NCBI GenBank assembly: GCA_045596945.1
Contig: JAZODL010000199.1
Location: forward strand, 1,143-65,142
Direction: 5' to 3'
Origin: Candidatus Methanomethylophilaceae archaeon
GTDB lineage: Archaea; Thermoplasmatota; Thermoplasmata; Methanomassiliicoccales; Methanomethylophilaceae
DNA: 64,000 bases
Positions 14,602 through 49,140 of the stretch are shown here, in pieces. A program made the position numbers and the translations under genes. Each line of letters begins with the position of its first letter. The stretch's first letter is position 1. The notes under the pieces were generated by a model. It was not told where the DNA came from and ran no database searches. It saw only the letters and a list, made by a program, of their open reading frames with translations.

Positions 14602-14610
14602 AACCCTTCA

Positions 14611-14636
14611 GGGGGCGTGAGCCCCCATCTTTTTTT
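14611..14636 (+). terminator. GC hairpin + T-tract terminator
   Basis: GGGGGC-gtga-GCCCCC followed by T7. Confidence 0.6.
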
Positions 14637-14660
14637 AACATAGTCCTCCATACTGAACAC

Positions 14661-15389: not shown

Positions 15390-15408
15390 TGATCTGGACA
15401 ACAACAGG

Positions 15409-15960
15409 ATGTTCATGCCGGTCCCCGAGACCCATATGTTCCAGGACGACAGGAAGATGATGGCCGAGCTCATCAGGGACGAGTGGTCCCTCGGAATAGG
15501 CAGGGACCCACTCATAGAGTACAATGCCGACAAGTACCTGATGGATTCCCGCTACGGCTCCATATTCATATACTACATCAACCGCAGCCCCCGTGTCTCG
15601 TCCGTGGACTACAACACCCTCCACAGGATATGCAACATGTCCTTCAGGGTGAGCTCCCCGGTCTACGACTACCATGCGGAGATATGCGAGGAGATGTACA
15701 GGATACTCCTGGCCAACAGACGCGCCGCGGCCAAACTGTCCCCGTACACGTTCCTGGAGATAACCAACGAACGTCACTCCAACGACCTGTCAGGGTACTA
15801 TGGGACCACCATATCCATCAGGCTCACGGGATATGCGACGCCCATTATGTCCGCAGGGTTCGGGGACGAGGTGAACAACACCATCATGAACCCCGTGGAC
15901 ATGAGCTGTCCGGAGCAGATGCCACACGGGCCCTGGGACGGTCGTGCATGCGGCAGATAA
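15409..15960 (+). CDS. putative tail terminator/completion protein
   Basis: Size and position immediately before the tail tube gene; start uncertain. Confidence 0.4.
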   Translation: MFMPVPETHMFQDDRKMMAELIRDEWSLGIGRDPLIEYNADKYLMDSRYGSIFIYYINRSPRVSSVDYNTLHRICNMSFRVSSPVYDYHAEICEEMYRILLANRRAAAKLSPYTFLEITNERHSNDLSGYYGTTISIRLTGYATPIMSAGFGDEVNNTIMNPVDMSCPEQMPHGPWDGRACGR

Positions 15961-24588: not shown

Positions 24589-24592
24589 TCCG

Positions 24593-24961
24593 ATGGGGAG
24601 ACCGCTCAGGAACGATCTGACGGGCCAGCGGTTCGGGAGGCTCACGGTCACATGCCGTGCACCGAACCGCAACGGCAAGGTGATGTGGCACTGCGTGTGC
24701 GACTGCGGGGGCTCCACGACGGTGGAGTCCTCCAACCTCATCTTCACCCAGATGTCCTGCGGGTGCTACAGGAGAGAGAGGATATCGGAGATTCACTCCA
24801 TCAGACCCCCCCTGGGGGCCCGCTACGGCCACCTGGTGGTAGAGGGATGGGACGGACCTATGTCGAAGGTCGTGTGCGACTGCGGGACGCACAAGGCTGT
24901 CAGGAGCAAGCACCTCCGTGACGGGAGCACCCGCTCCTGCGGGTGCAGAGGAAATATTTAA
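24593..24961 (+). CDS. Cys-rich zinc-binding repeat protein (N-terminal part of phage HNH/AP2-type endonucleases)
   Basis: DLTGQRFGRLTV...CVCDCG...SCGC, present twice; no nuclease domain. Confidence 0.65.
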   Translation: MGRPLRNDLTGQRFGRLTVTCRAPNRNGKVMWHCVCDCGGSTTVESSNLIFTQMSCGCYRRERISEIHSIRPPLGARYGHLVVEGWDGPMSKVVCDCGTHKAVRSKHLRDGSTRSCGCRGNI

Positions 24962-30168: not shown

Positions 30169-31104
30169 ATGAATGCGATAACGGCATCCAAAACGACCGC
30201 TGTGGCCCTCGGAACGTACAACGAACGCAACCTCAGGCGCGACATCTCGCTCTTCATCGCCCATCTGGCCCAGAAGGGACGCAGGGAGACCACCCAGAGG
30301 ACATACAGGGAGGCCCTGAAGAGCGTCTTCAGGACCATCATCGACAGCCAGGGACGTGTGATCGACCCCAGGATGCTCGTCCCCGAGGATTTCGAGCTCC
30401 TGAGGCAGCAGATGACGGTCTGCGACAACTCCAAGAAGCTCTACCTGGTGGTCCTGGGCCGTTTCGTGGAGTTCCTGACGGGCGAGAACCCCCGTCCGAA
30501 GGCCGATATCCTCTGGAACGACGACGACAGGCGCAGGTTGTTCATCTCTCCCGAGGAGTTCAAGGTCATGATGATGGATTCCAGCCCCGAGGAACGTCTG
30601 GTGCTCGCATTGGGAGCCTACATGGGCCTCAGGAGGTCCGAGATCGCGAGGATAAGGCTCTGTGACATCGAGAACGGCCATCTCACGGTCCACGGCAAGG
30701 GTCACGGGCCTCTCGGGAAGCGTGCCAGGCTGTTCATACCCGTCCAGGTGCGCTCCGCAATGGAGGATTACGCCCGTGTGCGCTCCATGATTGTCTCCCT
30801 GTCGGGTTCGACCGACGACCACCTCCTCCTGAGGGACACCAGGACTGGCAGGGGCCGTGCTATGGACTCCGCGTGCATCGGAGCGGTCGTCTCGAGGGTG
30901 TCGAAGCGCAACGGGGTGAGGATGACGCCCCATTCCCTCCGCAGACTCTTCGCCACGAGCCTCTGGCAGGCCGGGACGGACCTGAACACCATCAGAATCA
31001 TGATGAGGCACAGCAACGTGAACACCACGTTGGGTTGCTACATCAACGTGTCGGATGTGAGCCTCGAGGATGCCAGGAGGAGGTTGGCCTCCATTCTGGA
31101 TTGA
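30169..31104 (+). CDS. tyrosine recombinase (XerC/D-like; candidate shufflon invertase and/or integrase)
   Basis: GLRRSEI (R), HGKG (K), PHSLRR (HxxR), RHSNVNTTLGCY (H...Y). Confidence 0.9.
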   Translation: MNAITASKTTAVALGTYNERNLRRDISLFIAHLAQKGRRETTQRTYREALKSVFRTIIDSQGRVIDPRMLVPEDFELLRQQMTVCDNSKKLYLVVLGRFVEFLTGENPRPKADILWNDDDRRRLFISPEEFKVMMMDSSPEERLVLALGAYMGLRRSEIARIRLCDIENGHLTVHGKGHGPLGKRARLFIPVQVRSAMEDYARVRSMIVSLSGSTDDHLLLRDTRTGRGRAMDSACIGAVVSRVSKRNGVRMTPHSLRRLFATSLWQAGTDLNTIRIMMRHSNVNTTLGCYINVSDVSLEDARRRLASILD

Positions 31105-31216: not shown

Positions 31217-32167
31217 TTAGGGAAAGGTCGCCTGGGGCACGGTTCCGGAGAACACTCCGGTCGTGGCGTCGAGCGTGCCGTTGAAGGGCCTCGAGGCGTT
31301 GACAGCACTGACGGTCGCGAGTGCCCTTGCATCCGCCTTGGCGTCTGCGAGCTTGTCGCGGAGTTCGGTGATGGTCTTGGCATCCTCGCGGAGCTTGATG
31401 TCGGTGAACTCCTTGGCGAGGTAGGCGTTCTGCTCGCAGAACTGGTTCTGGATGAACGCGGTCTGCGCGGCGAACTGCGATGCCAGGTTGTAGTTGACGC
31501 CCTGGATGGCCTGCTGGGTCTCGCAGCAGCACTTGTCCTGCCTCCTCTCGATGCTGTTCTGCATCCTCTCGATGTTGAGGTTGGTTCCACAGAATCCCTC
31601 GGACATCTGCCTGGAGGTCTCGTACTTCATCTCGTCGATCTTGGAGCCGAGCCTGCAGCAGCAGTTGCAGATGGCCTGCTCGATCGAACCCTGGGAGAGC
31701 GCGATCTGCTTGTCCACCCCGCAGAGTGCGGACTTGATCTGTCCGATGTCGCAGTTCAGGGATGCCGCGAGGGTCTGCATGGACTGCTCGTTACCTCTGA
31801 CCGCTCCCATGAGCATCTCGTAGTTGCTGGTGTTGACGACGGTCCTGTCGACGCCGGCCACACCGCCGTCGAGACCCCTGTTGCCCCATCCGAGACCGTT
31901 TCCTCCTCCGAGGAGCAGGACGAGGAACAGGAACATGAGTCCGTCGTCGCTCCAGCCATCACGCCTGTTGTTGTTCATGAGTGCCATCACATCCGCCGCA
32001 TCGAGGCCCTGCCTGTTGAGCAGGCCCGCGAGCAGACCAGAGTCATAAGCTCCGTTCATAGATTCTTCAGCCTCCATTTTTATGAGCGCGTCCGTGTCAT
32101 GATCGATATCGCACAGTTTGTGCATCACTTCGCTGTGATGCTGGTTGAGAGACATCTCCTCTGCCAT
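31217..32167 (-). CDS. conserved phage hypothetical protein with CCC motifs
   Basis: MAEEMSL...hydrophobic segment, GGGNGLGWG, NCCC and KCCCETQQAIQGVNYN; GGAGGTG upstream. Confidence 0.65.
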   Translation of the reverse strand: MAEEMSLNQHHSEVMHKLCDIDHDTDALIKMEAEESMNGAYDSGLLAGLLNRQGLDAADVMALMNNNRRDGWSDDGLMFLFLVLLLGGGNGLGWGNRGLDGGVAGVDRTVVNTSNYEMLMGAVRGNEQSMQTLAASLNCDIGQIKSALCGVDKQIALSQGSIEQAICNCCCRLGSKIDEMKYETSRQMSEGFCGTNLNIERMQNSIERRQDKCCCETQQAIQGVNYNLASQFAAQTAFIQNQFCEQNAYLAKEFTDIKLREDAKTITELRDKLADAKADARALATVSAVNASRPFNGTLDATTGVFSGTVPQATFP

Positions 32168-32254: not shown

Positions 32255-32263
32255 AACAGGAGG

Positions 32264-32769
32264 TAAAGGCAATTAACAGTGCAGGTGGTTTGAAATGGGA
32301 GACGCTATGGACAGGTTCATCAACATCAATCAGTTTGTCATCAAGCTTCCTTGCAGATTTGATGTCAAGAGATTTATGTAGAATCACCTTAGACGGATCG
32401 CACTCTAAGACCACAGGGTACGAATATTATGATTTTTACAATATTCAGGTATTATGTAGCTTTTCAGCAATAAAACCGACTACTGTAGAATATGAAGCAT
32501 CATCTTCAACATCTTCAACCACACGTGGAATCTCTATCTCATGGCAGATTGGATGTTATAATTATTTCTACAGACAAAACTCATATACCAACTCGTATAC
32601 TGGGGTGATTTATGGTTTTTGGGCAAAGGAATCTTCTACTTCGACTGGTGCGGTTGCTCCCATCGGTACATTACCCAATACTTTACAGTCGATTTCTGGA
32701 GAATCGTGGTCGCAATCAACGACCTCAGGTTTGAAAATTATAAAGATAGAGGGGCTTGTTAAAAATTAA
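32264..32769 (+). CDS. silent tail-fibre C-terminal cassette K1 (site class AAGGCA)
   Basis: Begins TAAAGGCAATTAAC (KAIN) with no proper start codon; AT-rich, S/T/Y-rich. Confidence 0.7.
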
Positions 32770-32790
32770 GGGGCCATATGGCCCCTTAAT
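32765..32790. repeat. 26-bp perfect palindrome joining convergent cassettes
   Basis: ATTAAGGGGCCATATGGCCCCTTAAT contains both TAA stop codons. Confidence 0.9.
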
Positions 32791-33204
32791 ATCCACTGTA
32801 TGAGATGCATATCCCGTTTTTGATTGTTATAGGGTAATAATCGGGATTCCCCATATGGGATAAATTAAAGGAGGATATACCCCCACTATCGCCCCAACTG
32901 TTTGTGAAATAAAATGTGAACATAGGGTATGTATTGGAATAGAGAGTTCTGATTCCTCCATAGAAAGGACCGATGCTAGATGAACCGTTTTCACTACGCC
33001 TCCCACTGCATACGAAATACGAGGATGTGAGTTTTTTAAGATGGAGTCCGTACCAATAATAATATGTTGACGATCCATGCTTCATAATAATCTCTTCTGC
33101 CAGGATTTCATCTCCAGTGGACATTTCATCAAACATTGTGACCATTTGGTCAAATGAAGAGATGGTGTGGATTTTTATTGAACTTCCATCATTAATTGCC
33201 TTTA
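32786..33204 (-). CDS. silent tail-fibre C-terminal cassette K2 (site class AAGGCA)
   Basis: Minus-strand TAAAGGCAATTAAT at 33191-33204 reads KAINDGSS in frame with ORF 32786..33145. Confidence 0.7.
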
Positions 33205-33266
33205 GCGGATTCCGTCCTTAATCTAGGTGTAATCCCCATTAAATCCGTGTACATGCATGTTGTACC

Positions 33267-36143
33267 ATGGCAACCACTGTCAAACGCATATTCAACCTAT
33301 CCACGAGGACGTTGAAGGCCCCTTCTGGCAAGTGCTATGTCGGTCAGGTCTACGACCACATCAGCACGACGCTCGAGTTCACATACGACCCCATAAACGC
33401 CCTCTCGGACGGCTACGTCCCCTACATCGTGTTCAATCTCTACGACGATGCGGGCAACCTGTTCGTCTACGGACCCGGCTCGGCCCCCGTCTTCGACGGG
33501 TACACCTTCGAGATACCCACTGCGGTCACCTCCCGTATCAGGGGGGCCCGTCTGGATTACCAGGTCTGGCTCATCAGGAACAGATTGGAGTGGGACGGGC
33601 GCATAGAGACCCTCGGCGACACCGAGTACCTGTTCTCAGCCATGGACTCCCTCGCGTTCAAGGACGGACTCAGGTGCAGGCAGCCCTCCCGCAACCCCTG
33701 CGCCCCTCCCCAGCCCTGTCTGGAGCCCGGCACCCTCGGATGGGTCAACTACCTCCGCGACCACTGCGTCCTAACCCCCGTGCAGGAGTTCTACGGGGCC
33801 CTCTCGGACGGAGTCAGGGGGGTGTCCCTCCTCTTCCCCACGTACAACGAGTCCAAGGACTGCGTCGTGGAGCTCAGGGTACCCTATCTGGATTCATCGG
33901 GCAGGGTGGACATCAACACCCATCTGCCGATGATCTCCACGTGGGAGGAGGCGGCCGACACGAACCTCGTGGACGCCCTGATGCTCAGGGAGGCCCTGGA
34001 ATCCAAGTTGGACGACACCCAGGTCATCCACAGTTGGGACGATCTCGACCCCTACAGACCCGATTCTGAGACCCAGATAACCTCCGCGATCCTCTCCAAG
34101 CTGACATTCGACACCAAGACGGACAAGACCATGTCCGTGGCCCTCTACGACCCCGTGGCGGTCTACAACAGGGGCTCCGTAGTCGTCTGGACCGACGGTC
34201 CGTACGCCCCCGACATGTACATCTGCATGGCGGACGGAGTGACCGGCACCGCCCCCGACGACACCTCCGTCTGGTCCTGCGTCTCGGAGCAGAACATGAT
34301 CCTGGACGGGTGGGACTCCGCTCCCTGGGAGAGGTACGGGGACAACCCCGCCATCACCGTGTCCGCAGGCACCATCAGACGCAACCCCGTGCCGTTCTGG
34401 GCACCTGAGATCGAGTACCCCAAGGGGGCCGTCGTCGTGGAGAGGGACACCAACACGCTGTTCATCTCCATGGACTCCCGCAACAGGGGGAACAGCCCCT
34501 ACAGGCAGGATGAGCCCTCCGCACGCATCGTCAACCAGGAGTGGTGGACCCCCGTGAGGGGGGCGGGCGGTACCGATGAGCAGGACTTCACCACCAGGCA
34601 CGACCACCTCAACATCACCACGTACAGGTTCGATCTCGGATGCTGGGTCATCAGCCACACGTTCAACACGTACAACGTGTTCGTGCAGGTCAGACGCAAC
34701 GTCACCGGGGACTCGGAGACGGGGGCCGTCACCGACCGCACCCTCGTGGACGCCCGCATCGAGCCCATCGGACTGAACGAGGTCGCCATCAGACTCGATT
34801 CCCAGTTCCACGACCCGGAGCACGAGGGGTTCACCACCGTACCGCTCATCGCGTACGTGTCCCCCGGAGGAGGTCGCGATGCGGGGAAGACGGGCGTGGA
34901 GGGCTTCCAGCTCACCAGGGAGAAGGGCGAGCCCAACGGGTACGCGGGACTGGACCCGACCGGGAGGGTGCCCGCGGCCCAGCTCCCCATGATGACCTCA
35001 TGGGGTCAGGCATCCATGGACAGCATAGCCCCCGCGGTCATGGTGAGGACGGCCGTGGACCACAACACCAGGCTCATCTCGGAGCGCACGGAGAAGGTGG
35101 ATTTCGGACGCTGGAGCGCAGACTCCAGGTACGCAGAGGGCTCCGTGGTGACCCATGCGGGACGCATGTACATCGCGACCAGGTACAACACGGCCGTGGA
35201 CCCCTCCGGCTCCGCGGACGGGACGTGGACGCCCATCGCCACCGCATCCCCCGAGGAAAGCGTGTCCAGGTACGTCCTGAACACCTCCGTCGACGGTACG
35301 GAGCTCGTCGTGGAGCACAACCTGGGCACCAGGAACCTCGTGTTCTCGGTCAGGGCCCTGGCGGACGACAGGTTCCTCAGGGACTACGATGTGTACGCCC
35401 CCTCCGACGACACCGCCAGGTTCGTGTTCCCCTCCGCACCTGGTATGGTGGCGGTCAGCCTGCTCTCCTGTCCCGCTCCCCCCATGGGCTCCGTGGAGGA
35501 GATCGTCTACAAGGGGGTGAATCCCTGGGTGTACGAGAACACCACGGGTGCGCCCGTGTTCGTGCAGTCCATCATGGCGTCAGGGGATCTTGGGTTCGCC
35601 GTGGTCGACCAGGACCCTGCATCCGGGTACGACCCCGTGACGGTCAGGGTAATGTCCTCGGCCCCCGACGGCACCCTCGTGGCCGGCAGGGCGGACTACG
35701 TCAGGAGGTTCACCAGGGACGACCTGGAGGTGGAGCCCTCCACGGGCGAGTACGTCCTGCACATCACCAAGACGGACATCGCCTCCGACCTCGCATGGTA
35801 CGCGGTGCAGGTGTATCTGGACGGCAGCGGACAGGCCCTCGCCAACGTGAAGCAGAACGGCTCCGAGGTGACGGTCGGCATATCCTCGAAGACCATCGAG
35901 AACACCCCCGACATCGCGGGAGCGGTCATCCTGAAGAGGGCGACCCAGGCGGTGACGTTCGAGATGGGACAGATAGAGGACGGCACCCTCACCCTGGACA
36001 TCCCCGAGGGGAGGACGGTCGCAGGGGTCCAGCTGTTCGTCGGTGCCGAGGGGGACATGATGATGTCCGACATCAAGTGCATCGACGGGAAGGTCACGGC
36101 GAGGTTCTCCGAGCCCGATTACGGTACCGTGGTCCTCGTCTGA
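33267..36143 (+). CDS. tail/baseplate protein with carbohydrate-binding-like repeats
   Basis: W....Y..GS.V repeats (CBM5/12-like), KGEPNGYAGLDPTGRVPAAQLP, VEHNLGT. Confidence 0.6.
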   Translation: MATTVKRIFNLSTRTLKAPSGKCYVGQVYDHISTTLEFTYDPINALSDGYVPYIVFNLYDDAGNLFVYGPGSAPVFDGYTFEIPTAVTSRIRGARLDYQVWLIRNRLEWDGRIETLGDTEYLFSAMDSLAFKDGLRCRQPSRNPCAPPQPCLEPGTLGWVNYLRDHCVLTPVQEFYGALSDGVRGVSLLFPTYNESKDCVVELRVPYLDSSGRVDINTHLPMISTWEEAADTNLVDALMLREALESKLDDTQVIHSWDDLDPYRPDSETQITSAILSKLTFDTKTDKTMSVALYDPVAVYNRGSVVVWTDGPYAPDMYICMADGVTGTAPDDTSVWSCVSEQNMILDGWDSAPWERYGDNPAITVSAGTIRRNPVPFWAPEIEYPKGAVVVERDTNTLFISMDSRNRGNSPYRQDEPSARIVNQEWWTPVRGAGGTDEQDFTTRHDHLNITTYRFDLGCWVISHTFNTYNVFVQVRRNVTGDSETGAVTDRTLVDARIEPIGLNEVAIRLDSQFHDPEHEGFTTVPLIAYVSPGGGRDAGKTGVEGFQLTREKGEPNGYAGLDPTGRVPAAQLPMMTSWGQASMDSIAPAVMVRTAVDHNTRLISERTEKVDFGRWSADSRYAEGSVVTHAGRMYIATRYNTAVDPSGSADGTWTPIATASPEESVSRYVLNTSVDGTELVVEHNLGTRNLVFSVRALADDRFLRDYDVYAPSDDTARFVFPSAPGMVAVSLLSCPAPPMGSVEEIVYKGVNPWVYENTTGAPVFVQSIMASGDLGFAVVDQDPASGYDPVTVRVMSSAPDGTLVAGRADYVRRFTRDDLEVEPSTGEYVLHITKTDIASDLAWYAVQVYLDGSGQALANVKQNGSEVTVGISSKTIENTPDIAGAVILKRATQAVTFEMGQIEDGTLTLDIPEGRTVAGVQLFVGAEGDMMMSDIKCIDGKVTARFSEPDYGTVVLV

Positions 36144-36233
36144 GCCTGTAGGGGGCGAAAGCCCCTTCAAACCCCTTATGAAAAAATAAGCCGGAATCTT
36201 TCGTTAACTCATTCTTGGTAAAGGTTCCTTCCA

Positions 36234-36544
36234 TAAAGGCAATTAACGAGAGCGGTTCGGGAACAACAGTCTCAACCAGTTACAAGTTCAGCTATTTCGC
36301 ATCAGGAGGATCTATAGGAGACATCTGGGCCTACTACTCAGAAGGTAGCGGAACTAGATACAATCTGATAGTAATCAAGACTGCATCGAATGAATTCGCT
36401 TCAACAGGATATTGGAATAAAGCAATACCTTATTCTCTATCAGATAGCACTTTGTATTACAGAGATTTGTATACATCCTCGACTTCTGGACAGGGTAGCA
36501 CGGATATCAGTTCATATTATGGAATTTGGATTCATTTCGGATGA
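36234..36544 (+). CDS. silent tail-fibre C-terminal cassette K3 (site class AAGGCA)
   Basis: TAAAGGCAATTAAC at 36234-36247 reads KAINESGS; AT-rich. Confidence 0.7.
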
Positions 36545-36555
36545 AAAAGGGTAAT

Positions 36556-36575
36556 GAGGGGCCATATGGCCCCTC
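36556..36575. repeat. 20-bp perfect palindrome between convergent cassettes
   Basis: GAGGGGCCATATGGCCCCTC. Confidence 0.9.
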
Positions 36576-36576
36576 C

Positions 36577-37262
36577 TCAACTAAGGGCGATTGAGGAAAT
36601 TGAGGATATGAACAACTTCATGTATCCTTGAGTTGTCGATGAATTATACTTATCCATGTCTATGCTGCAATGGTGCATGTATTTGTAATTGGAATTTGTT
36701 GAAGTGATTTTGATGTCGTCCACGATACCGTTGGACCAAGAGAAGGCTAATTTTATCGTTGTACGTCCACTGTTATTGGTTACATATTTTGATGGATTCG
36801 GGAATGAGAGGTTACAGGTGTATTCTTCAAAATCGCTATGGTATGAGTAATATTCTGTGCAATTGACAACCATTGTGAAACTAATCGTACCAGGATAGTC
36901 GCTGGAAATCACCTGTTCGAGGTAATCCTTCAGAACCGATTTGAAAGGGTCGATGACAGTCCACGTTTTCAGATTGACCATGCTACTGAAATTGTAATAA
37001 ACCAAGAATATGGAGGGAGTTGTACTAGGATTAGTCATGGAGTCGAATGAATATGCAGGATAAGAGGAAATCACTGGTTTGGTGGTAGCAGAACTGTTGT
37101 ATGTTGATTTAGACAGAGTGCCCTTGGATGAGATGCCGCAGGAATATGATGAATATGCTCCAATATAACCATCAGAGGGGGTTGTCACAAGTTTCGCCTC
37201 ATCGGAAATTGTCAGAGTATAGGAGTCGTTGCTGGAATCCAATGCGATATTAATTGCCTTTA
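36577..37262 (-). CDS. silent tail-fibre C-terminal cassette K4 (site class AAGGCA)
   Basis: Minus-strand TAAAGGCAATTAAT at 37249-37262 reads KAINIALDSS in frame. Confidence 0.7.
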
Positions 37263-37284
37263 ACGTTACCCGCTTCGCTCTGTC

Positions 37285-38085
37285 TTTAGTGCGATTAACA
37301 GCAAGATGGACAACATGACCGTGGACAGCGCACCCGCCCCCGGATCCAGCAATCTCGTGACCAGCGGAGGCGTGTATACTGCGATTAACGATAAGTCCGT
37401 GTCAGACGTGGCCATGGCCGTCGACGCAGACAACAACCTAAGCGTGACGGTCAAACAGGCTGATGGAACGAGTAAGAGCGGAAGCGTGGCATTGCCTGGA
37501 GGAGAGATTGAGATTAAGAACTACGGTGAAGTAGGAGCTACCAACAAACTCACGATAACACTTACCAGTTCCGAGAGTGTATCGACAAGTTCGACTAGCA
37601 ATAGAACGTGGTATCTGTTTGAGGCAGAGGACTCCTATTTGTCGGAGGGACTGTATTATGACCCTGATTCAAACACTATCAAGAAATGTGGTCTGAAAAC
37701 CATAAAACAGACTCAATCAGGTACGCTTGCAACAAGCCTATACAATTCAAATGTAAGTAGGTTGTTATCATACTTCCAAAATGCACTGGTCGGAAAGCGT
37801 CTTACAAGTGAGAACTCCAACAATATAACGACCAGTCATACCATATATTATAAGGTTGATTCCAAATCAATCATACTGGAAGTGAGCTGCACCTACGGTT
37901 CCAATGAAAATTATGACAGGATTACGGCTGTAAGCTCGGTCAAGGCGTATTCAACATCATATAATAATACGTTAAGCGGGACCTTAAATCTCACAAGGGT
38001 GTCCAACAGCACAACCAGTATTTACCACCAGTGTGACGAATACAACGAGATACCATCAACCTATGTCAAGATCGCAGACCTTTAA
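37285..38085 (+). CDS. silent cassette S1 (site AGTGCG) containing an internal second-tier site (ACTGCG)
   Basis: TTTAGTGCGATTAAC 37285-37299 (FSAIN); GTGTATACTGCGATTAAC 37372-37389 (VYTAIN). Confidence 0.72.
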   Translation, partial: FSAINSKMDNMTVDSAPAPGSSNLVTSGGVYTAINDKSVSDVAMAVDADNNLSVTVKQADGTSKSGSVALPGGEIEIKNYGEVGATNKLTITLTSSESVSTSSTSNRTWYLFEAEDSYLSEGLYYDPDSNTIKKCGLKTIKQTQSGTLATSLYNSNVSRLLSYFQNALVGKRLTSENSNNITTSHTIYYKVDSKSIILEVSCTYGSNENYDRITAVSSVKAYSTSYNNTLSGTLNLTRVSNSTTSIYHQCDEYNEIPSTYVKIADL

Positions 38086-38250
38086 GGGGTCATCGACCCC
38101 ATCAAACCTCTTACAATACAAAGTTCAGATCAGAACATCGGTACAAATGGAATTATCGTCGATGACTGTGAAATGATATGCCATTATTTCACCGATAGAA
38201 TGGTGGTGAAATGGATATAAAAAGAGTATCCCCCGAAGGGGTAAGGTGTT

Positions 38251-38772
38251 TCACTGTTTCAAGCGGTACATCTTGTATATATAGGTCGGTATATCAGCAG
38301 TTTTGATGACTGATTCTCCTAACGACTTACTATAAGAACCGTTGAACAATTGTAGGAAATAAGCAAATGGATTCCCAGAGTTCATCATGCTAGCCTGTTT
38401 AACTCCGTACTTGCATAAACTTACATAGGCATCGTTTGCAATATAACAGAACGAACCATAACTTGTGGCATCAGATTGCACCTCAAATTCCATAAAGTTG
38501 GTAGCACGTATAGTAGACATCGTTATTCCTGATATTGAACTTGTCCAACTCGATATACTGCTTGAAGGTATACCGATAAGTTTGAACGATACCTTCACCC
38601 TGTCCCCTGTGACCCAGTCAGTCGGGAAGTTCGTCAGGTCAACCTCCTCCCAGACCTCTCCGCCACCAGCATCCTGCCAGCTTCCAGCCCCAGCCCCGTC
38701 ACTTGTCCAGACCTGTCCAGCCTGTCCAGCACTTGTCGGGCTGTACTGCGTGGCTTCGTTAATCGCAGTAAA
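38251..38772 (-). CDS. silent cassette T2 (site class ACTGCG)
   Basis: Minus-strand TTTACTGCGATTAAC at 38758-38772 reads FTAINEATQY...AGQAGQVWTSDGAG (tail-fibre-like). Confidence 0.72.
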   Translation of the reverse strand, partial: FTAINEATQYSPTSAGQAGQVWTSDGAGAGSWQDAGGGEVWEEVDLTNFPTDWVTGDRVKVSFKLIGIPSSSISSWTSSISGITMSTIRATNFMEFEVQSDATSYGSFCYIANDAYVSLCKYGVKQASMMNSGNPFAYFLQLFNGSYSKSLGESVIKTADIPTYIYKMYRLKQ

Positions 38773-38810
38773 TGTCGCGGAATCATGAAAAAAAATAAAG
38801 GGAAGGGGTT

Positions 38811-39248
38811 TCAGAACTCGGGTTCGGCGGGCCAGATGGGGATGTTGTTCGGGTACCCTACGGCATCTCTGGTCGCCCTGACCGCCAGCTTGTACGCGTC
38901 GATGGCCTTGAGGGTCGCCTCGTTGGCCTCCACGTCCACTCCGTTCCTGATGTTCCTCTGTGCGGACTGCTCCGCACCGTCCAGACGCTCGTACCTGATG
39001 GCCCTGAACATGGTCTGGAGCCCGTCGTCCCACCTGTCATCGGGGATGGTGAGTGCAAGGGCCTTCGCCTGGTCGTATTCCGTGGGTGTGAGGAGGACCT
39101 CGGTGTACTCCCACCCTTTAGTGGTGCGGTCGTCATCCTGTTCCTCGAAGGGGGTGATGGATCCCCTGACGTACACGGTCCTCCCGTTGACCTCCACATT
39201 GGAGGGTCTGACATCCTGTGTTCCCCTTACTCTTCCGTTGAATCTCAT
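38811..39248 (-). CDS. putative tail-fibre assembly chaperone
   Basis: C-terminal AYKLAVR...GYPNNIPIWPAEP resembles Tfa-like proteins; coupled to the RT stop. Confidence 0.5.
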   Translation of the reverse strand: MRFNGRVRGTQDVRPSNVEVNGRTVYVRGSITPFEEQDDDRTTKGWEYTEVLLTPTEYDQAKALALTIPDDRWDDGLQTMFRAIRYERLDGAEQSAQRNIRNGVDVEANEATLKAIDAYKLAVRATRDAVGYPNNIPIWPAEPEF

Positions 39249-40297
39249 ATCGTTTCAACTCCTATAGCCATGGCCCTGTCGACCCTCCCGAGGTACTTGT
39301 CCGCGAGTTTCCGATCGGAGCACCAGCTGAGCATGCCCTCGTATGATATCAGGCTTTTAAACATCTTCGGACGGATGACCTCCCTCCTGCGGATGGCCCT
39401 CAGTATGCGGTTGCATGCCCTGATGAAGGAGACCTTGGTACGTTTGCGGATCATGGTCTGCTTGTGGTCGGACACGTATCCCATGAAATCCAGTCTGCGC
39501 TTCACCACCGGGAACACAGCGTAGTTCCCCTTCATCCTCAGACCGATCCCGTGGATGTACTGTCTGATGTACCTGATGTACGCCCGGAGCTTGGCCTTGG
39601 AGTTGCTGAGGAGGGCGATGTCGTCCATGTACCGATAGTAGTACGGCGCATGCAGGGTCTCCTTCACATAATGGTCCAATCCGCTCAGGAAGAACACGCT
39701 CAGGACCTGGCTGGAGAACAGACCTATCGGCAATCCGCGTTTGCCGGGGCACTGGAATATGATGCGGTGTAAGAGGTCCAGTGTACGACGGCATTTGAGT
39801 CGTGAACGGAGCATGTCGAACAGTATGTGCCTGTCCACGGAGTCGAAGAAGTGGTATATGTCCAGCTTGGCGCAGTAGCGGGTGCCACGGGGGTCGCACT
39901 GGAGGTCCATGGCGACCTGTTTGGCCCCCCTGTGGAGACCACGCCCCTTCACACCGGCGAACGAGGTCTCCCCGACCTCCCTGTGGAGGATGGGTCCGAC
40001 AACGTTGAACACTGCGTGCTGGATCACCCTGTCGGGATACGTGCGGGTGTAGCACAGCTTCCTGTCCTTCCCGCGTTCCCTGATGGTACGGTGCCTGAAC
40101 CGACCGTAGTGGAACGATTCGCTCGTCAATATGTCTTTGATGCCCCGGACGTAGGGATCAGGGTCGGCCTTCATTGCCTGTACCGCAGGGTCGCGGTGAT
40201 GGTCCTTGCAGGCCTCCTTTATCGCGAGTCGGATGTTGTCCTCGTCGCATATACAATCATACAGTTTCCTTCCATCGATGTTTCCAACCCTCTTCAT
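39245..40297 (-). CDS. DGR reverse transcriptase
   Basis: MKRVGN...NIRLA, DRVIQHA, KLDIYHFFDSV, GLPIGLFSSQ, YYRYMDD, LDFMGY; adjacent TR. Confidence 0.95.
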   Translation of the reverse strand: MKRVGNIDGRKLYDCICDEDNIRLAIKEACKDHHRDPAVQAMKADPDPYVRGIKDILTSESFHYGRFRHRTIRERGKDRKLCYTRTYPDRVIQHAVFNVVGPILHREVGETSFAGVKGRGLHRGAKQVAMDLQCDPRGTRYCAKLDIYHFFDSVDRHILFDMLRSRLKCRRTLDLLHRIIFQCPGKRGLPIGLFSSQVLSVFFLSGLDHYVKETLHAPYYYRYMDDIALLSNSKAKLRAYIRYIRQYIHGIGLRMKGNYAVFPVVKRRLDFMGYVSDHKQTMIRKRTKVSFIRACNRILRAIRRREVIRPKMFKSLISYEGMLSWCSDRKLADKYLGRVDRAMAIGVETI

Positions 40298-40437
40298 AGG
40301 TATCCTCTCCTATGTTGTTCATCCGCTTTCCATCGGCCCTGAGGCTGTACTGACGGGTGTAGGTGAAGTCGTGTTTTGCCGAGAGGCAGGGTTGTCCCGG
40401 TCCTTCTCCTCCCCAAAGGGGATGGAGCGTGAGGAAA

Positions 40438-40593
40438 TAGGAAAGGCGGGAGCCGATGTTCGAGTTCGAGTTGGTCGAATTGTAGTTGACATTGCAATAG
40501 AACAGTCCAGCATTGTCTGTGTTGTTGTAATTGCCACCAACATTCGGGAAATTCGCATTCGACGAGTTGTAGTTCACATTGCCATTGTCGGCG
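40438..40593 (-). ncRNA. DGR template repeat (TR)
   Basis: 156-bp AAC-rich copy of the target 3' end; core mismatches all at TR adenines. Confidence 0.92.
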
Positions 40594-40705
40594 CGAAGAC
40601 TAGACCCACGGCTCCGACACGGGACAACCATGCATGGTCCATGGAGGAGGGTGTATAAAGGGTTTGGTGCGCCTGCCGGCGCCATGGTTCGCCGGAGAGG
40701 CCCCC

Positions 40706-40718
40706 GGGGCTTCGCCCC
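40706..40718 (-). other. GC hairpin downstream of VR/IMH
   Basis: Minus strand GGGGC-GAA-GCCCC about 30 bp after the target stop codon. Confidence 0.5.
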
Positions 40719-40750
40719 TTATGGGGAAAGGGTTTGCAGGGGCTCCGGGC

Positions 40751-43700
40751 TCACGCCCTTCCGCCCCTGTAGGAGAGGCGGGAGCCGACGTACGAGCTCG
40801 AGTTGGTCGAAGTGTAGAGGACACTGCAACAGAACAGTCCAGCATTGCCTGCGTCGTCGTAAATGCCACCAACACGCGGGAAATACGCAACCGACGAGTA
40901 GTAGCCCACACTGCCATAGTCGGCGAAGTACGTGGTCGCCGAACCTCCGGACTGGCTGGTGGAACAGAACCCTCCCTTGTTGGTTCCCGAGACGGTCTTG
41001 ATGTATCCGCCGGAGTTGGAGCCGGTCAGACCCGTGTCGGTTCCCAAAGACGCCTGCTTCGCATAGTTGCTGGTGGAGTTCCAGGAGCTGTTGTCGAATG
41101 CCCTGGAGTTGGCCTGTCTGGGGAGCCAGTAATACAGCTTCGACGATGAGCCGGCACGGTTCCATGCCCCTCCGATGAACTGGTAGATGTTGCCCCAGAT
41201 GTCGTGTATCCAGAAGAACGCGTTGCGTGCCGAGCTCTTGGAACCGGCCATACCGTATGCGGTGGTGCTCAGTCCTCCGTTTCCGAGACTGGTCCCGTCT
41301 TCATCGGCATATCCATAGGAGTGTGCGACCTGCGTGTTGGTGGATCTGTACAGGAGGACGAACAGTGCCTGGAGGTACGTCCACTGCTGGAAGCTCATAC
41401 AGTCGTAATCCGTTCCACGTGCGTTCGCGGCCACGAAATACTGGTTGTATGCGGTCGACACCAACGCACTTGAGGACACCTTGGAGTATATCCCCGAAGT
41501 CGAACCCGATGCCTGGAAGCAACCGATGTGGAAAGAGTTGGCGAAATACGAGTTATCGTTGGATGCCATGATGGTCGACCTGTTGACGGACGACATGGCG
41601 GACTCTATCTGGTCGTTGGAGTACGAGTCACAACCCTTGGCGTGCGCATAGCACTGGAATGTGGAGTCAGGCTGTTCGTCCTTGTCGGAGAAGATGATAC
41701 GTATCTTGGAACCGTCGTTGGTTATGGAGAGCCACTGGAACGGGAACTCTGTGAACATGTCCGCATTCGAGGAGACGGGGCCCCACGTGCCGGCGTCCGT
41801 ATCCAGATCCGTCCAGCTGGAACCGTTCTTGACGACGGGCTTTATCCCCTCCAGGATCTTGTGGGATCTCTCCGACCAGGAACCCATGCTGAAAGTGGAT
41901 GCTCCCGAAGCGGGCGTGTATCCGGAACAGGAATTCGCCACGGAGGCCCCGTTGACCGTGATGGTCGCAGGGTACGTGCACCTGTCCTCACAGTCGGATG
42001 TGCTGATTGCGATGTCCACCGCTGCGAACCCGTAACCGAACGTGATGGCCATGGTCACGGTGTACTCCTGGTCGTTCGCGATGATCAGGGTCTGCGGGTT
42101 GCATGATCCGCCTGTGGGCACGTTCGTCATGGTGAAGGTCACGCTCCCCGTCGTGGAGAACACATGGGAGGTCCCTCCCGAGGAATCCGATGTCAGAGAA
42201 GCCGACTCCGCCCCTGTGACGGCGATGGTTCTCCCGCTCTGGTACCCGCTGTTGGATGCATCCGTGACGACCACGTTGACGACAGGTTTCCTGACGAGGG
42301 TGAACGTGATGTTGGTCACGAGTCCCGCGGCTGCCGTGGTTATGGTCTGGCTCTCCACCGCATAATAGCCCTCGGGGACATCGCATCCCACAGTGTACTG
42401 GGAGGTGGCGTTGAGCGTCATCGTCACGGAACCTCCCGAGCCGATCGTCGCGGTCGTGTCCGCGGAACCCTCGGCAGGTGTCGCGGTGATGACCCTTCCG
42501 GTGATGTTCCCCGTGGCGGAGGTAACGTTGATGGTGAGGTACGACTTGGCCGTGCTCACCTCGCCCTCGAGGTTCTCGACCTTTCCCTCCAAGGTGGAGA
42601 GGGATTGGTTGATCGTGTTAATCGCACTATACACAGCCTTGTTCTGCACGGGGTTGGTGCTGGTGCTGGAGAGTGCGCTGTCGACGGTGACCGCCGCGGG
42701 GACCTCGCTCCTGAGCGCGTAGTCGCCGGTGGGTTGCTTCCCGTTGAGCTGGGACTGGATGGAGGATGTGACCCCGCTGACGTAGCCGAGCTCTGCCGAG
42801 GTGACGCCCGAGACGGCGACCTTCCCGTTCCCATCGGAGACGAGCGCCCTGCTGGCCGTGAGGTTGTTACCGGTGATGGATGTGGCCGCTCCCGTGATGG
42901 TGGCCTGCTTGCCGTTCACGACGCCCTGGAGGGTGTCGAGCTCGGTTCCCGTGGCATAGTCGCCGGTGGGCTGGTACTTGGTGAGCTCGTCGGCGAGTCC
43001 CGTGGTCGTGACGTATGATGAGTCGTTGGAGAGCTCGCTGACCTTGGTGGGGACGGTTATGTCCACGGCCTTGCTCCCGTCGACGGTCAGCGCGGAGCCG
43101 TTCCTCTTGATGGTCTCGATGACGTTGGTCTGTGCGCCCGCGGCGATTCCCGTGAGCTTGGACTTCTCCGCATCGGTGTAGTTGTTGTCGGAGAGGACCT
43201 TGTCGCCGTCCCTGTCCACCTTGCCGTTCTCCAGGCCATCGATGGCCGCTTTGACGACCTTGTTCTGCACGGGGTTGACGGATGTGGTGGAGAGGGCGGA
43301 GTCGACGGTGATGCTGACCGCGGTGGTGCCGATTTTCTCCCATGCGTTGTTGATCCAGAGGTACTCCGCCTTGATGTCGGAGTCCGCGGTGTTCCCGGCG
43401 GGGACGAGGTACAGGGTGTTCGCCACTCCCGTCGTGGGGAGGGCGTCCGCAATCTCTATGTTGAACTGCCTGAGGGCGTTTATCTGGTTCTGGAGGGAGG
43501 CCTGTGCATTGCCGATGGTGGTGTTGAGCGCGGCGACCTCGTTGGAGAGCTCGCCCTTGGTCGCGGCCGCCGCGACGCCCTCCACCAGGTCGGAGATGTC
43601 CGCCTGGACGGTGTCCATCTCGCCCTCCAGGGTGGTGGCCCGTCCCTCGAGGGAGGTTGCCCTGTTCTGGAGTGCGGCATCGGCGGAGTCGAGCTCGCCC

Positions 43701-44083
43701 ACCTTGGTGTCGTAGTCGCTCTGGGCGACCTTCTTGGTGATGGCAGTCGCCAGCTCCGCATCCTTGGTGTCGAGGGCGGATTTGATGGTCGCAACATGCG
43801 TGCTCACGGCCCCTCCGGACACGGGGCTGGTGCTCCCCGCATTCACGGAGCTGTCGATGACCAGGTTCCCACTGTACTCGGTCCATGTGGATCCGTTGGA
43901 CACGTAGAACCTGCCCTTGGTGTATTCGCCGGTGGTAGTTCCCGCATAGAGCACGACGCAACCGTTGTTGACCGCGTTCGCGACAGGCAGGGAGCTGAAA
44001 GTACCCAGGAGGTTCCCCTGGGCGGAGGAGTGGATCCTTCCTCCCACGGAGATGCTGGCGTAGTGTGTGTAATCATCTGCCAT
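40751..44083 (-). CDS. tail fibre/receptor-binding protein; shufflon expression locus and DGR target (C-type-lectin/FGE-like C-terminus)
   Basis: VDSALS.TS.NPVQNK fibre repeats, coiled coil, VYSAIN site at 42617-42634, IHDIWGNIYQF...VGSRL; likely start MADDYTH. Confidence 0.85.
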   Translation of the reverse strand: MADDYTHYASISVGGRIHSSAQGNLLGTFSSLPVANAVNNGCVVLYAGTTTGEYTKGRFYVSNGSTWTEYSGNLVIDSSVNAGSTSPVSGGAVSTHVATIKSALDTKDAELATAITKKVAQSDYDTKVGELDSADAALQNRATSLEGRATTLEGEMDTVQADISDLVEGVAAAATKGELSNEVAALNTTIGNAQASLQNQINALRQFNIEIADALPTTGVANTLYLVPAGNTADSDIKAEYLWINNAWEKIGTTAVSITVDSALSTTSVNPVQNKVVKAAIDGLENGKVDRDGDKVLSDNNYTDAEKSKLTGIAAGAQTNVIETIKRNGSALTVDGSKAVDITVPTKVSELSNDSSYVTTTGLADELTKYQPTGDYATGTELDTLQGVVNGKQATITGAATSITGNNLTASRALVSDGNGKVAVSGVTSAELGYVSGVTSSIQSQLNGKQPTGDYALRSEVPAAVTVDSALSSTSTNPVQNKAVYSAINTINQSLSTLEGKVENLEGEVSTAKSYLTINVTSATGNITGRVITATPAEGSADTTATIGSGGSVTMTLNATSQYTVGCDVPEGYYAVESQTITTAAAGLVTNITFTLVRKPVVNVVVTDASNSGYQSGRTIAVTGAESASLTSDSSGGTSHVFSTTGSVTFTMTNVPTGGSCNPQTLIIANDQEYTVTMAITFGYGFAAVDIAISTSDCEDRCTYPATITVNGASVANSCSGYTPASGASTFSMGSWSERSHKILEGIKPVVKNGSSWTDLDTDAGTWGPVSSNADMFTEFPFQWLSITNDGSKIRIIFSDKDEQPDSTFQCYAHAKGCDSYSNDQIESAMSSVNRSTIMASNDNSYFANSFHIGCFQASGSTSGIYSKVSSSALVSTAYNQYFVAANARGTDYDCMSFQQWTYLQALFVLLYRSTNTQVAHSYGYADEDGTSLGNGGLSTTAYGMAGSKSSARNAFFWIHDIWGNIYQFIGGAWNRAGSSSKLYYWLPRQANSRAFDNSSWNSTSNYAKQASLGTDTGLTGSNSGGYIKTVSGTNKGGFCSTSQSGGSATTYFADYGSVGYYSSVAYFPRVGGIYDDAGNAGLFCCSVLYTSTNSSSYVGSRLSYRGGRA
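40770..40925 (-). repeat. DGR variable repeat (VR)
   Basis: Aligns ungapped to TR 40438-40593. Confidence 0.92.
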
Positions 44084-44103
44084 AGGATGGGCATCGTCAG
44101 CAC

Positions 44104-44116
44104 GCAATATAAACCG
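44104..44116 (-). promoter_or_regulatory. TATA-like box of the fibre gene, inside an invertible segment
   Basis: Minus strand CGGTTTATATTGC about 25 bp upstream of the ATG at 44083. Confidence 0.45.
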
Positions 44117-44139
44117 TTCCCTGGAGCCCTCGGCCTGCG

Positions 44140-45252
44140 TTTAGTGCGATTAACAGCAAGCAGGACACCCTCCCCGCGACCGGGTCCTCCACGGTACCCG
44201 TCTACGTGTCCGCAACGGGCACCGTCACCGCATGCTCCCTCGGAGCGGCCGCGACCAAGGGCGTATCGACATCCGTCACCTCCGGCGACGCGAACCTCGT
44301 CACAGGAGACGCTGTGTATAAGGCAATTAACACATTGGATGCATCTGTAGATGGACAGGATTTCACAATCACTTTAAATGGTAAATCAACTACTGTGACA
44401 CTCCCTCGAAAGACAGGTACCGCACTCAGAGTCGTATTGACCACTGATGGAGATGCGAGTGCTATCAGTGGAGTGTTGGTTACAGTATCTAATTCATCAT
44501 ACTCGTACACAGGAACTTCAGATTCCTCGGGAGTAGCGGTTGTACAGGTGGAACAACCTGGAACATATACTGTATCTGCTACGGCCCCCAGATATTATAC
44601 TGCAACATCACCCAGTGTAGATCTTACCTCGGAATCCTCGATTGCCCTCAGTGTAAATACATACAGTTTGACTTGTAGATGGAAATCGGGAGGATTATCC
44701 ACTTCAACTAAGACGATTGTGGAAGACGGTAGTCCATCATCATCTAGGTTCTACGTAAACACAGATACTTATGATGATTATGGAACAACAGTAACTACAG
44801 ATGGTGTGCCTATATACAAAATCAAGGCGTATGGTAATAATTCATATTCTACATACGGTAATTCAGAAGTTCCCAGTTATTCGTATCTTCACAGGATCTC
44901 ATCTTGGAATAGCACGAATGTGCTTACGGACTTACAATATTGGAAATTCACATCCACTTTTTCAGGAAGATGCAGATTTCAAGTAGATATTGAATATTGG
45001 AATTATGGTGAGGGGTCTTCATACGGAGGCATATACAGGAATAGTTCATTTACCATTACATTCGATGCAAATATTACAAAAAATTCAGATTCTTATGGAA
45101 TGGCTCTAACAGATATAGAGATTGTATCTATTCCTTCTACTGTATCTTTTTATTCAGATTCTCACCGTACCGATTATTTCTCATATGATATCGGTGAGAT
45201 CCGCTGTACTGCGATTTCTATCGACTATGATACATTACCAGATCCAAGTTAA
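44140..45252 (+). CDS. silent cassette S2 (site AGTGCG) containing an internal second-tier site (AAGGCA)
   Basis: TTTAGTGCGATTAAC 44140-44154 (FSAIN), open frame through GTGTATAAGGCAATTAAC 44314-44331 (VYKAIN); becomes AT-rich right after the second site. Confidence 0.75.
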   Translation, partial: FSAINSKQDTLPATGSSTVPVYVSATGTVTACSLGAAATKGVSTSVTSGDANLVTGDAVYKAINTLDASVDGQDFTITLNGKSTTVTLPRKTGTALRVVLTTDGDASAISGVLVTVSNSSYSYTGTSDSSGVAVVQVEQPGTYTVSATAPRYYTATSPSVDLTSESSIALSVNTYSLTCRWKSGGLSTSTKTIVEDGSPSSSRFYVNTDTYDDYGTTVTTDGVPIYKIKAYGNNSYSTYGNSEVPSYSYLHRISSWNSTNVLTDLQYWKFTSTFSGRCRFQVDIEYWNYGEGSSYGGIYRNSSFTITFDANITKNSDSYGMALTDIEIVSIPSTVSFYSDSHRTDYFSYDIGEIRCTAISIDYDTLPDPS

Positions 45253-45260
45253 ACAGTTTA

Positions 45261-45278
45261 AGGGCCCATATGGGCCCT
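45261..45278. repeat. 18-bp palindrome after cassette S2
   Basis: AGGGCCCATATGGGCCCT. Confidence 0.85.
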
Positions 45279-47838: not shown

Positions 47839-49140
47839 ATGAAATTCTCTATGTCGAACAAATCTATGCTGGCGGCAGCCATCATGCTCGTCGCTGCATT
47901 CGCGGGGATCACCGTCTTCGACGGTGAGGACGTGGATGCGGCGAACGCGGCCGTCTCCCTTGACGGGGAGTTCGACCTCGCGGGCGTGAAATGGACCAAC
48001 GCCGGCCTCGGCAACAACCTCTCGATTGCCGACGGTAAAATCACCGGAACCGTCGCGAAGGCGGACGCCTCGAAGATCCAGGCCCTCTGGGGAACGGGCG
48101 CAACCGAGAAACATGTCGTCATCCTGACCTTCACCATCCAGCCTGGACAGTACCTCGTCTGGGAGGCATCCGACAACTCCGGCGTCAAGACGGCCAAAGC
48201 AGAGTCCGATGGTAAAATCGTCATGGGACTCCGTCTCGCAGAGAGCACTAAGGACTTCGTCTACGCGGTCAGCTCTGTGAACGTCGCCGACAAGGCGGTC
48301 TATGACGCACTCATCAAGGAGAAGGTCGAGTTCGATGTCGAGCTCCTCGGAGACGCTGTCAACATCTACTACACTGTCGGAGACCTCACCTACATCCAGC
48401 GCTCCATTGCCAAACAGACCTACACCCTCGTCTCCATGGACGACCTCAGGGCCGTCGCACCCGAGGGATACGAGTTCGCAGGCTGGGCATGGACCAACAA
48501 CGTCCTTGACGCAGGCGCCATCCTCACCCTCGCAGAGGGCGAGGAGGACGGATACTATACGTTCACCGCCACTTTCAGGGAGATTCCCGTCCAGGAGGTC
48601 TTCAAAGTCGAGTTCGTCGTCGACGGCATCGTCGTCCAGACCTGCCAGTCCGACAACGTCGTCGTTCCTGCGGATCCCTCTAAGATCGGGTTCAAGTTCA
48701 CCGCATGGACTGTCGAGGGAGTCATGGCAAACCCCGCCAACTACGCATACACCGAGGATGTCAAATTCACCGCCGCGTTCGAGGCATACACCTACAGGGT
48801 TACCTTCGTCGCAGGCGGGGATGTCGTGGGCACTCCCCAGACCGTTAAGCACGGCGACCTCATCCTCGCACCCGCACTCCCCTCGGGATACGAGTCCTGG
48901 AACTTCGACTTCGCCAAGGCCATCACCGAGGACACCGTCATCGTCGCAGTCGAGGCCCCCGAGCCCGAGCCCACCGGCGCAGACGACCCCAAGACCCTCA
49001 TGGTCTACATCATCGTGGTCATCGTGATCGCCCTGCTCGTCGCCTGTGTTATCTACCTCATCAGAGAGGGCAAGATCGTCGTCGGACTCGGAAAGAAGAA
49101 GGAGATCGAGGCGCCCGCAAAGGAGGAGCCCAAACAGTGA
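47839..49140 (+). CDS. secreted, membrane-anchored surface protein with InlB-B-like repeats
   Basis: Signal peptide ending DVDAA, PEGYEFAGW / DPSKIGFKFTAW repeats, C-terminal transmembrane helix. Confidence 0.75.
   Translation: MKFSMSNKSMLAAAIMLVAAFAGITVFDGEDVDAANAAVSLDGEFDLAGVKWTNAGLGNNLSIADGKITGTVAKADASKIQALWGTGATEKHVVILTFTIQPGQYLVWEASDNSGVKTAKAESDGKIVMGLRLAESTKDFVYAVSSVNVADKAVYDALIKEKVEFDVELLGDAVNIYYTVGDLTYIQRSIAKQTYTLVSMDDLRAVAPEGYEFAGWAWTNNVLDAGAILTLAEGEEDGYYTFTATFREIPVQEVFKVEFVVDGIVVQTCQSDNVVVPADPSKIGFKFTAWTVEGVMANPANYAYTEDVKFTAAFEAYTYRVTFVAGGDVVGTPQTVKHGDLILAPALPSGYESWNFDFAKAITEDTVIVAVEAPEPEPTGADDPKTLMVYIIVVIVIALLVACVIYLIREGKIVVGLGKKKEIEAPAKEEPKQ

Follow-up and report, generated by a model that had tools for sequence, protein, structure and literature searches.

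The DNA analysed here, a stretch of 64,000 nucleotides (the window), lies on C199, a 79,031-bp contig of a 1.44-Mb assembly from Candidatus Methanomethylophilaceae, and encodes a terminase, a portal, a major head protein and tail-region genes by Pfam and PHROG profile searches, which is why we take the element to be a tailed virus. Its fibre locus consists of a constant trunk gene, alternative tip cassettes in both orientations, ten short sites of one form, a tyrosine recombinase gene and a diversity-generating retroelement (DGR) whose predicted target is the tip now joined to the trunk (Table 1). PHROG tail and structural matches, together with the tail-region context, make a fibre or receptor-binding role of this gene likely. 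We conclude with great confidence that the locus is a shufflon, an interpretation supported by simulated inversions, by alternative junctions in relatives and by the layout of a related complete genome, and we judge it probable that this shufflon is mainly class-restricted and nested, a first tier of inversions picking a branch and a second tier picking a tip.

The fibre locus and its ten sites

The initial annotation had described ten sites in three classes, named by a 6-bp spacer (AGTGCG, ACTGCG or AAGGCA), with one acceptor per class inside coding sequence and the other sites, here called donors, at the heads of fibre cassettes. All ten are present with the class and strand claimed, exactly one site per class carries the GTGTAT left arm of an acceptor, and every site is read in frame as x-A-I-N; the acceptor coordinates were right, while the donors had been drawn 3-4 bases short, and each site is taken here as the full 18 bp. 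Six sites lie on the plus strand and four on the minus strand. The ACTGCG and AAGGCA acceptors are indeed nested within the two AGTGCG cassettes, 90 bp inside branch S1 and 177 bp inside branch S2, a layout that the fibres of relatives and the related genome G078 also support.

The number of sites is far above chance. The pattern ANNGCNATTAAY matches ten times in the 79-kb contig, against two matches in the other 1.36 Mb that complete the assembly; exact copies of the three classes number ten in C199 and none outside it, and ATTAAY occurs at 11 distinct places in C199, ten of which are these sites; 300 local shuffles yield a mean of 0.17 sites and a maximum of 2. Partner sites are identical over 11-15 bp only, in both orientations. 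The sites are asymmetric, with a conserved core and right arm and a variable left arm that mirrors the right at 5 of 7 bases in acceptors and at 0-4 of 7 in donors. Acceptor codons are rare in the structural genes of the virus (ATT makes up 5% of the Ile codons, TAT 15% of the Tyr codons and AGT 3% of the Ser codons), and a constraint on the DNA is therefore indicated.

The GC content of the cassettes is 0.39-0.46, compared with 0.57-0.69 in the trunk, linkers and core genes. The donors had been called ATG-less, which holds for five of the seven (no in-frame start within 90 bp upstream) and fails for c1, with one GTG and two ATGs, and for c3, with one TTG. Palindromes at the cassette ends are likely terminators, and two related strains (X8 and X9, below) retain them, including where the cassette itself has been lost. 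A TATA-like box at 44107-44113 lies between the trunk start (44083) and the S2 donor site ("site C"), inside the invertible segment, and because it travels with the trunk the latter would stay expressed in either orientation.

Table 1. Features of the fibre locus, in window coordinates.
Feature	Position	Strand	Match or remark
Tyrosine recombinase, 311 aa, candidate invertase	30169..31104	+	Pfam PF00589 5.5e-17
Conserved neighbour gene	31217..32167	-	phrog_16490
Donor cassette c1, AAGGCA class	32260..32769	+	GC 0.39
AAGGCA site, donor c1	32260-32277	+
Palindrome at convergent cassette ends	32769-32786	.	near-identical GC copies 36557-36574, 45261-45278, 38086-38099
Donor cassette c2, AAGGCA class	32786..33208	-
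AAGGCA site, donor c2	33191-33208	-
Fibre-like passenger gene, 958 aa, between AAGGCA-class sites	33267..36143	+	weak PHROG tail fibre match 6e-4
Donor cassette c3, AAGGCA class	36230..36544	+
AAGGCA site, donor c3	36230-36247	+
Donor cassette c4, AAGGCA class	36577..37266	-
AAGGCA site, donor c4	37249-37266	-
Branch S1: donor site, 24-codon GC-rich linker, ACTGCG acceptor, tip t1	37282..38085	+
AGTGCG site, S1 tier-1 donor	37282-37299	+
ACTGCG site, nested acceptor in S1	37372-37389	+
Donor cassette t2, ACTGCG class	38251..38775	-
ACTGCG site, donor t2	38758-38775	-
145-aa gene behind the reverse transcriptase	38811..39248	-	conserved beside the reverse transcriptase in relatives
DGR reverse transcriptase	39245..40297	-	PF00078 1.6e-16; phrog_1423 5e-85
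DGR template repeat	40438..40593	-
Current tip (DGR target branch)	40751..42616	-	PHROG tail protein 2e-21
DGR variable repeat, 3' end of current tip	40770..40925	-
AGTGCG site, primary acceptor	42617-42634	-	joined to 44142 by inversion in X1
Constant fibre trunk, 483 codons	42635..44083	-	PHROG virion structural protein 7e-11
Branch S2: donor site, 53-codon GC-rich linker, AAGGCA acceptor, tip k0 (Ig-like domain)	44137..45252	+
AGTGCG site, S2 tier-1 donor (site C)	44137-44154	+
AAGGCA site, nested acceptor in S2	44314-44331	+

Simulated inversions within classes reach eight fibres

In a symbolic simulation that allows inversions only between sites of the same class, all eight C-termini proposed for the locus (1 + 2 + 5) are reached in zero to three steps: the DGR tip in none, S1 with t1 and S2 with k0 in one, S1 with t2 and S2 with c2 or c4 in two, and S2 with c1 or c3 in three. 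The number of states reached is 256 when an acceptor is required and 512 otherwise, and 8/8 fusions are in frame without stops, with lengths of 646-1110 aa.

Junctions in related strains

Seven sequencing runs were compared with the window as contigs, and cassettes uncovered in a run do not count as absent. Strain X1, mostly 95-99% alike to the window, joins 42630 to 44142 on opposite strands, with 14 letters that fit both sides and 190 on the shorter side. Judged from this sequence, the joint is that of the AGTGCG acceptor with the S2 donor, which sets the trunk on S2 by inversion, and the depths of the flanking bins (0.22 and 0.03) fit a trunk followed by the whole S2 linker to 44331; it counts against this evidence that the joint rests on a single contig of depth 2.8. 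The same strain also has t1 in a donor position, adjoining t2 back to back. X2 and X4 share the arrangement of the window, with the DGR tip on the trunk; in X9 a foreign tip begins, in frame, at the base right after the AAGGCA acceptor; and in X8 397 unknown bases separate that acceptor from gene 33267, which is reversed. The cassette c2 is gone from both X8 and X9 and its site is degenerate, and X5 and X6 hold no informative joint. The primary acceptor, where seen as DNA, carries a first-tier cassette in 5/5 cases (window, X1, X2, X4 and G078).

Record 7 of X1 (43743-44176) was considered as proof of coexisting orientations and set aside: no more than 22 of its bases lie beyond site C, and the six differences that it shows could equally be an S1-like start. 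Separately, 467 bases of the trunk (42638-43106) are skipped in X2, suggesting a change of stalk length at site-less repeats.

A related complete genome and the class code

G078 (IMGVR_UViG_3300045988_183780) is a complete genome of 84,332 bp with direct terminal repeats and a recombinase 57% identical to that of the window. Its five sites all fall within 10.6 kb: a primary acceptor ahead of a DGR tip, two donors of the same class, an acceptor with another core nested inside one of these donors, and one donor of this second class, which gives one acceptor per class in two classes, one of them nested. The primary acceptor has A as its first spacer base (AGTGCG) and its two donors T (TGTGCG), so that this base is likely part of the left arm and the overlap likely begins one base later. 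The site end varies as well (ATTAAC or ATTAAT in the window, ATTGAT in X1), which confines the overlap to NNGCNATT, with bounds of about 5-8 bp only. Spacer identity had been proposed to keep the tiers separate; the nesting is supported, the code is probably not the whole 6-bp spacer, and the sequences place it probably in bases 2-6.

The strains also bear on whether classes matter at all. A t2-type cassette belongs to the ACTGCG class in the window, carries an AAGGCA-type spacer in X1 and stands in the first tier in G078; since cassettes change class in this way between strains, the tiers are not sealed over evolutionary time, and absolute separation, the remaining part of the proposal, fails. 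This mobility and the single base by which AGTGCG and ACTGCG differ count against strict classes; together with the at least 40 products that are reachable without a class rule (search cut at 150,000 states), they would suit a one-class shufflon in which the enzyme reads GCNATTAAY only, any acceptor meets any donor, the spacer tunes rates and dozens of fibres result. Free mixing would, however, erase the single acceptor per class seen in both the window and G078, the primary-acceptor junctions seen as DNA are all first-tier, and tyrosine recombinases generally require overlap identity, as in Cre/lox and lambda Int, so that we regard a one-class shufflon as unlikely. We retain class-restricted nesting, with a tier separation that is probably leaky and cassettes that are relabelled between strains.

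In G079 (78% complete) we find the same gene neighbourhood, no such sites and no PF00589 match. It has a 66-nt inverted repeat (L023:5096-5161 and 7756-7821) with start codons within it, on either side of low-GC tip cassettes that adjoin a DGR tip; a TATA-like box lies upstream of one arm only, and the arrangement is possibly a promoter or start switch. Among the 61 other genomes of the genus, the S1 linker is found in none and the acceptor pattern in two, one of them a true homologue on the short contig G017:C259; in viral contigs the acceptor pattern has three matches, none shown to be related. Five copies of TAAACACCGTTAA in another DGR-bearing virus (G011:C37, L123/L124; positions 413, 7116, 9849, 17204 and 21571) were tried as a shufflon and rejected, as they lie before genes rather than in frame inside them, and look promoter- or operator-like.

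Breakpoints in fibre proteins

Database proteins show the same kind of divergence. P0127, whose trunk is 60% identical to that of the window, and P0248 have a common trunk and S1 linker (95% identical), and their tips diverge from the nested T-A-I-N site. P0123, P0247 and P0267 share a first linker, which in P0267 leads to a t1-like tip and in P0123 and P0247 to a second linker, after which the two diverge at Q-A-I-N; P0122 holds this second linker in donor form. With a G078-type trunk, P0346, P0380 and P0384 diverge at second and third sites. From such fibre proteins, relatives appear to have three tiers. The residue pairs at matching sites (S/C, T/S/A and K/Q) can be reached by a change of the first codon base only, with codons inferred, which fits the shifted overlap.

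A breakpoint test took in 293 proteins, among which 362 pairs share an N-terminus, and 168 of these pairs have a clear last breakpoint. It falls within 3 residues of A-I-N in 11/14 site-bearing fibre pairs and in 0/154 other pairs, where it must be held against the comparison that the group was drawn by motif, spans about four lineages and consists of protein without DNA. Other fibre families also break at repeat ends, a further point against us, and because unrelated fibres do so, ordinary mosaicism can mimic site-specific exchange; the protein breakpoints thus support such exchange without proving it. The cassettes also have a second shared joint, after a glycine linker, at which necks and tips change partners in the absence of an A-I-N site (window 37490-37510 and 38640-38700; P0264/P0265 and P0297).

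The breaks in unrelated families would be the expected pattern if there were no programmed inversion at all, the fibres being mosaics made by homologous or illegitimate recombination at stalk-repeat ends, the low-GC cassettes acquired genes or relics, and the recombinase an integrase. Such an origin would leave no reason for partner identity of so few bases in both orientations or for rare codons, nor for the X1 inversion with its 14-bp overlap, and it is opposed by the five of seven donors that lack an upstream start and by the layout kept in G078. On its side stand the possible own starts of some cassettes and the recombinase homologues of 33-39% identity in 19/24 genomes of the genus, which are site-free in the stretches examined. 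We consider it very improbable.

Several further observations weigh against a nested shufflon worked by this recombinase. No run holds this exact virus, the best containing 0.13 of its words among the 13 matches listed. In G078 one donor is stopped after 67 codons, and the acceptors are not clearly more symmetric than the donors. At a homologous acceptor P0318 has T-A-I-N and P0322 N-A-I-N, and P0330 carries two V-Y-T-A-I-N sites in tandem. A Met stands two residues before S-A-I-N in P0123, P0247, P0267, P0265 and P0330, which, with the in-frame starts of c1, means that some cassettes may be expressed alone. The recombinase, finally, may be an integrase, whether in addition to being the invertase or in place of it.

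A retroelement on the first branch

The DGR template and variable repeats differ at 24 of 156 positions, and 23 of these 24 lie at template adenines; in G078 the count is 25/32 over a roughly set interval. The DGR branch is accordingly placed, by prediction, under further mutation at adenines by the reverse-transcriptase system. The current tip gives a weak profile match to PDB 5vf4_A (E 3e-4), presumably the variable protein of a Thermus DGR, which has a C-type lectin fold; AlphaFold models of this tip have pLDDT values of 35 and 48, too poor to use, and a fold search returned no match. The 145-aa gene behind the reverse transcriptase has no Pfam or PHROG match, and no avd-like accessory gene was found.

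With the DGR tip on the trunk in the window, X2, X4 and G078, one may ask whether the nested shufflon is frozen or decaying in this genome, diversification having passed to the DGR. The interrupted G078 donor and the loss of c2 from X8 and X9 would agree with that, but the eight window cassettes are intact and in frame, the catalytic residues of the recombinase are conserved and the near-identical strain X1 is in another state, and a frozen locus is to us the least probable of the alternatives.

The candidate recombinase

The recombinase gene lies 1.2 kb from the first site and outside all ten. R155, K177, H255, R258, H281 and Y291 are invariant in an alignment of 35 homologues, and the catalytic role of these R/K/H/R/H/Y residues in tyrosine recombinases is established. 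Only 20 residues follow Y291, which leaves no room for an extra C-terminal domain. This protein is the sole PF00589 match on C199, where a search for a resolvase found none, and it is likely the enzyme of this system, its activity being predicted from these features. Probing viral contigs with this recombinase, and metagenome contigs with the neighbour gene at 31217, yielded no relative. Independently of the fibre locus, G008, G005, G046 and G049 (L119, L121, L122 and L128-L131) carry a DGR reverse transcriptase and a recombinase homologue of about 32-39% identity within 3-5 kb of each other, often with a Flg_new-like adhesin close by, and a look for inverted 12-mers clustered at these loci in at least three copies found none.

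Proposed mechanism

The mechanism proposed here draws on tyrosine-recombinase chemistry and on the analogy with asymmetric sfx sites. The recombinase would bind the conserved right half (GCNATTAAY) of every site, this half would pair with the partly symmetric left arm of an acceptor, and strand exchange would need identity in an overlap that starts at spacer base 2, with GT, CT or AG beside the cut. Three AAGGCA sites stand in direct orientation around gene 33267, so that protection from deletion is needed; that gene would itself be turned over by tier-2 inversions. Since the second-tier acceptors sit in the next copy of the stalk repeat, a tier-2 choice would be expressed only with its branch on the trunk, and stalk length would follow the branch (646-1110 aa). 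With sites at the stalk-repeat end, duplication of a repeat plus a core change would make a new tier, and class labels would drift between strains by rare cross-class events or mutation. Whether the locus typifies a family of methanogen viruses, with one recombinase, a two-base code by the cut, a tree of two to three levels, stalk length tied to the tip and one DGR branch, is a proposal that we hold to be evenly balanced. The system likely serves to switch between receptors on Methanomassiliicoccales hosts.

Host and genomic setting

The host of the virus is likely a gut methanogen of the Methanomassiliicoccales, assigned from binning and from recombinase-bearing relatives: mcrA is present in the assembly, and 7/10 of the strongest named genome records with recombinase homologues are Methanomassiliicoccales, Methanomethylophilaceae or Thermoplasmata. 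A search for a terminal repeat on C199 found none. In G078, G079, G017:C259, L153, L166, L187 and L226 the neighbour gene at 31217-32167 again adjoins either the recombinase or the fibre locus. Positions 67065-78445 of C199 have stretches of up to 270 bp in common with contigs C178 and C201 of the same assembly, and C178 carries a 36% homologue of the recombinase, possibly on a second related element. Two window proteins (47839-49140 and 18501-22895) have Flg_new adhesin repeats, and one of them appears to carry a signal peptide and a membrane anchor at its C-terminus. Homing-endonuclease-like genes, judged by eye, occur among fibre cassettes or tail genes (window 24542-24961; L023:2990-3604; L233:10011-10733 and 14533-15549).

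Comparison with known systems

Our searches of the literature, supplements and subscription papers aside, turned up neither a nested or multi-class fibre shufflon nor a locus that joins a shufflon to a DGR, in keeping with the initial annotation, which knew of no described shufflon with such a hierarchical spacer code; each ingredient has a precedent, and none was found for the nested combination. If true, the present reading extends multi-cassette shufflons to archaeal viruses and adds a new logic, branch-conditional tiers split by small core differences with a DGR on the same gene. It would also provide a natural orthogonal, inversion-only set of sites for one enzyme, a hierarchical receptor switch by recombination plus hypermutation, and a handle on how viruses follow the variable surfaces of gut Methanomassiliicoccales.

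DGRs of the Bordetella BPP-1 Mtd type act on receptor-binding tips of phages. The DGR described here resembles them in its reverse transcriptase, template repeat and C-terminal variable repeat with adenine-specific changes in a tail protein, and differs in the avd-like accessory gene, for which no counterpart was found, and in having one detachable shufflon branch as its target.

The archaeal viruses phiCh1 and phiH1 have invertible fibre ends with two alternatives (PMC6210493, PMC4284463, PMC8651126), and with their Int1 they share with our locus an archaeal tailed virus, a tyrosine recombinase, repeats in fibre genes and a swap of C-termini and length (PMC6210493, PMC4284463). There, two fibre genes face each other with the recombinase on the invertible segment, and the available text describes no classes, nesting or DGR, whereas here the recombinase lies outside all ten sites and one trunk serves eight ends. 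The main text on MSTV1 contains none of the shufflon or DGR terms (PMC11375127).

Nesting and multiple classes have been reported in bacteria. A PglX locus undergoes two nested inversions, in a survey by Milman et al. that by its own statement excluded viruses and archaea (PMC9881135). At the pneumococcal cod (SpnIII) hsdS locus a single tyrosine recombinase, PsrA, serves three repeat classes, IR1, IR2 and IR3, of 15, 298 and 85 bp, as one recombinase would here, with exchange between the expressed hsdSA and silent copies of a methyltransferase subunit (PMC7096588). In our virus, by contrast, a single 18-bp site varies by 1-3 bases from class to class, and acceptors of the second tier occur only in their own branch.

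Similar in form is the R64/IncI1 shufflon (Rci, sfx, PilV adhesin), which has seven sites in one system, a 12-7-12 geometry and an Rci C-terminal domain, and whose asymmetric sfx sites are proposed to permit inversion and hinder deletion (PMC11852207). In both loci a tyrosine recombinase gene adjoins several short sites of either orientation, a constant N-terminus is combined with alternative adhesin C-termini, and the sites have a conserved core and right arm and a variable left arm. A screen of Rci homologues yielded no fully orthogonal pair of enzyme and sites (PMC11852207); the present locus offers candidate orthogonal sites for one invertase. Unlike R64, it has three core classes in place of a 12-7-12 geometry with a single shared core, acceptors nested in donor cassettes, a DGR branch and an archaeal virus as its carrier, and its enzyme of 311 aa ends 20 residues past the catalytic tyrosine, a difference from Rci judged by length. 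The locus works like the R64 shufflon and is not a member of the Rci/sfx system.

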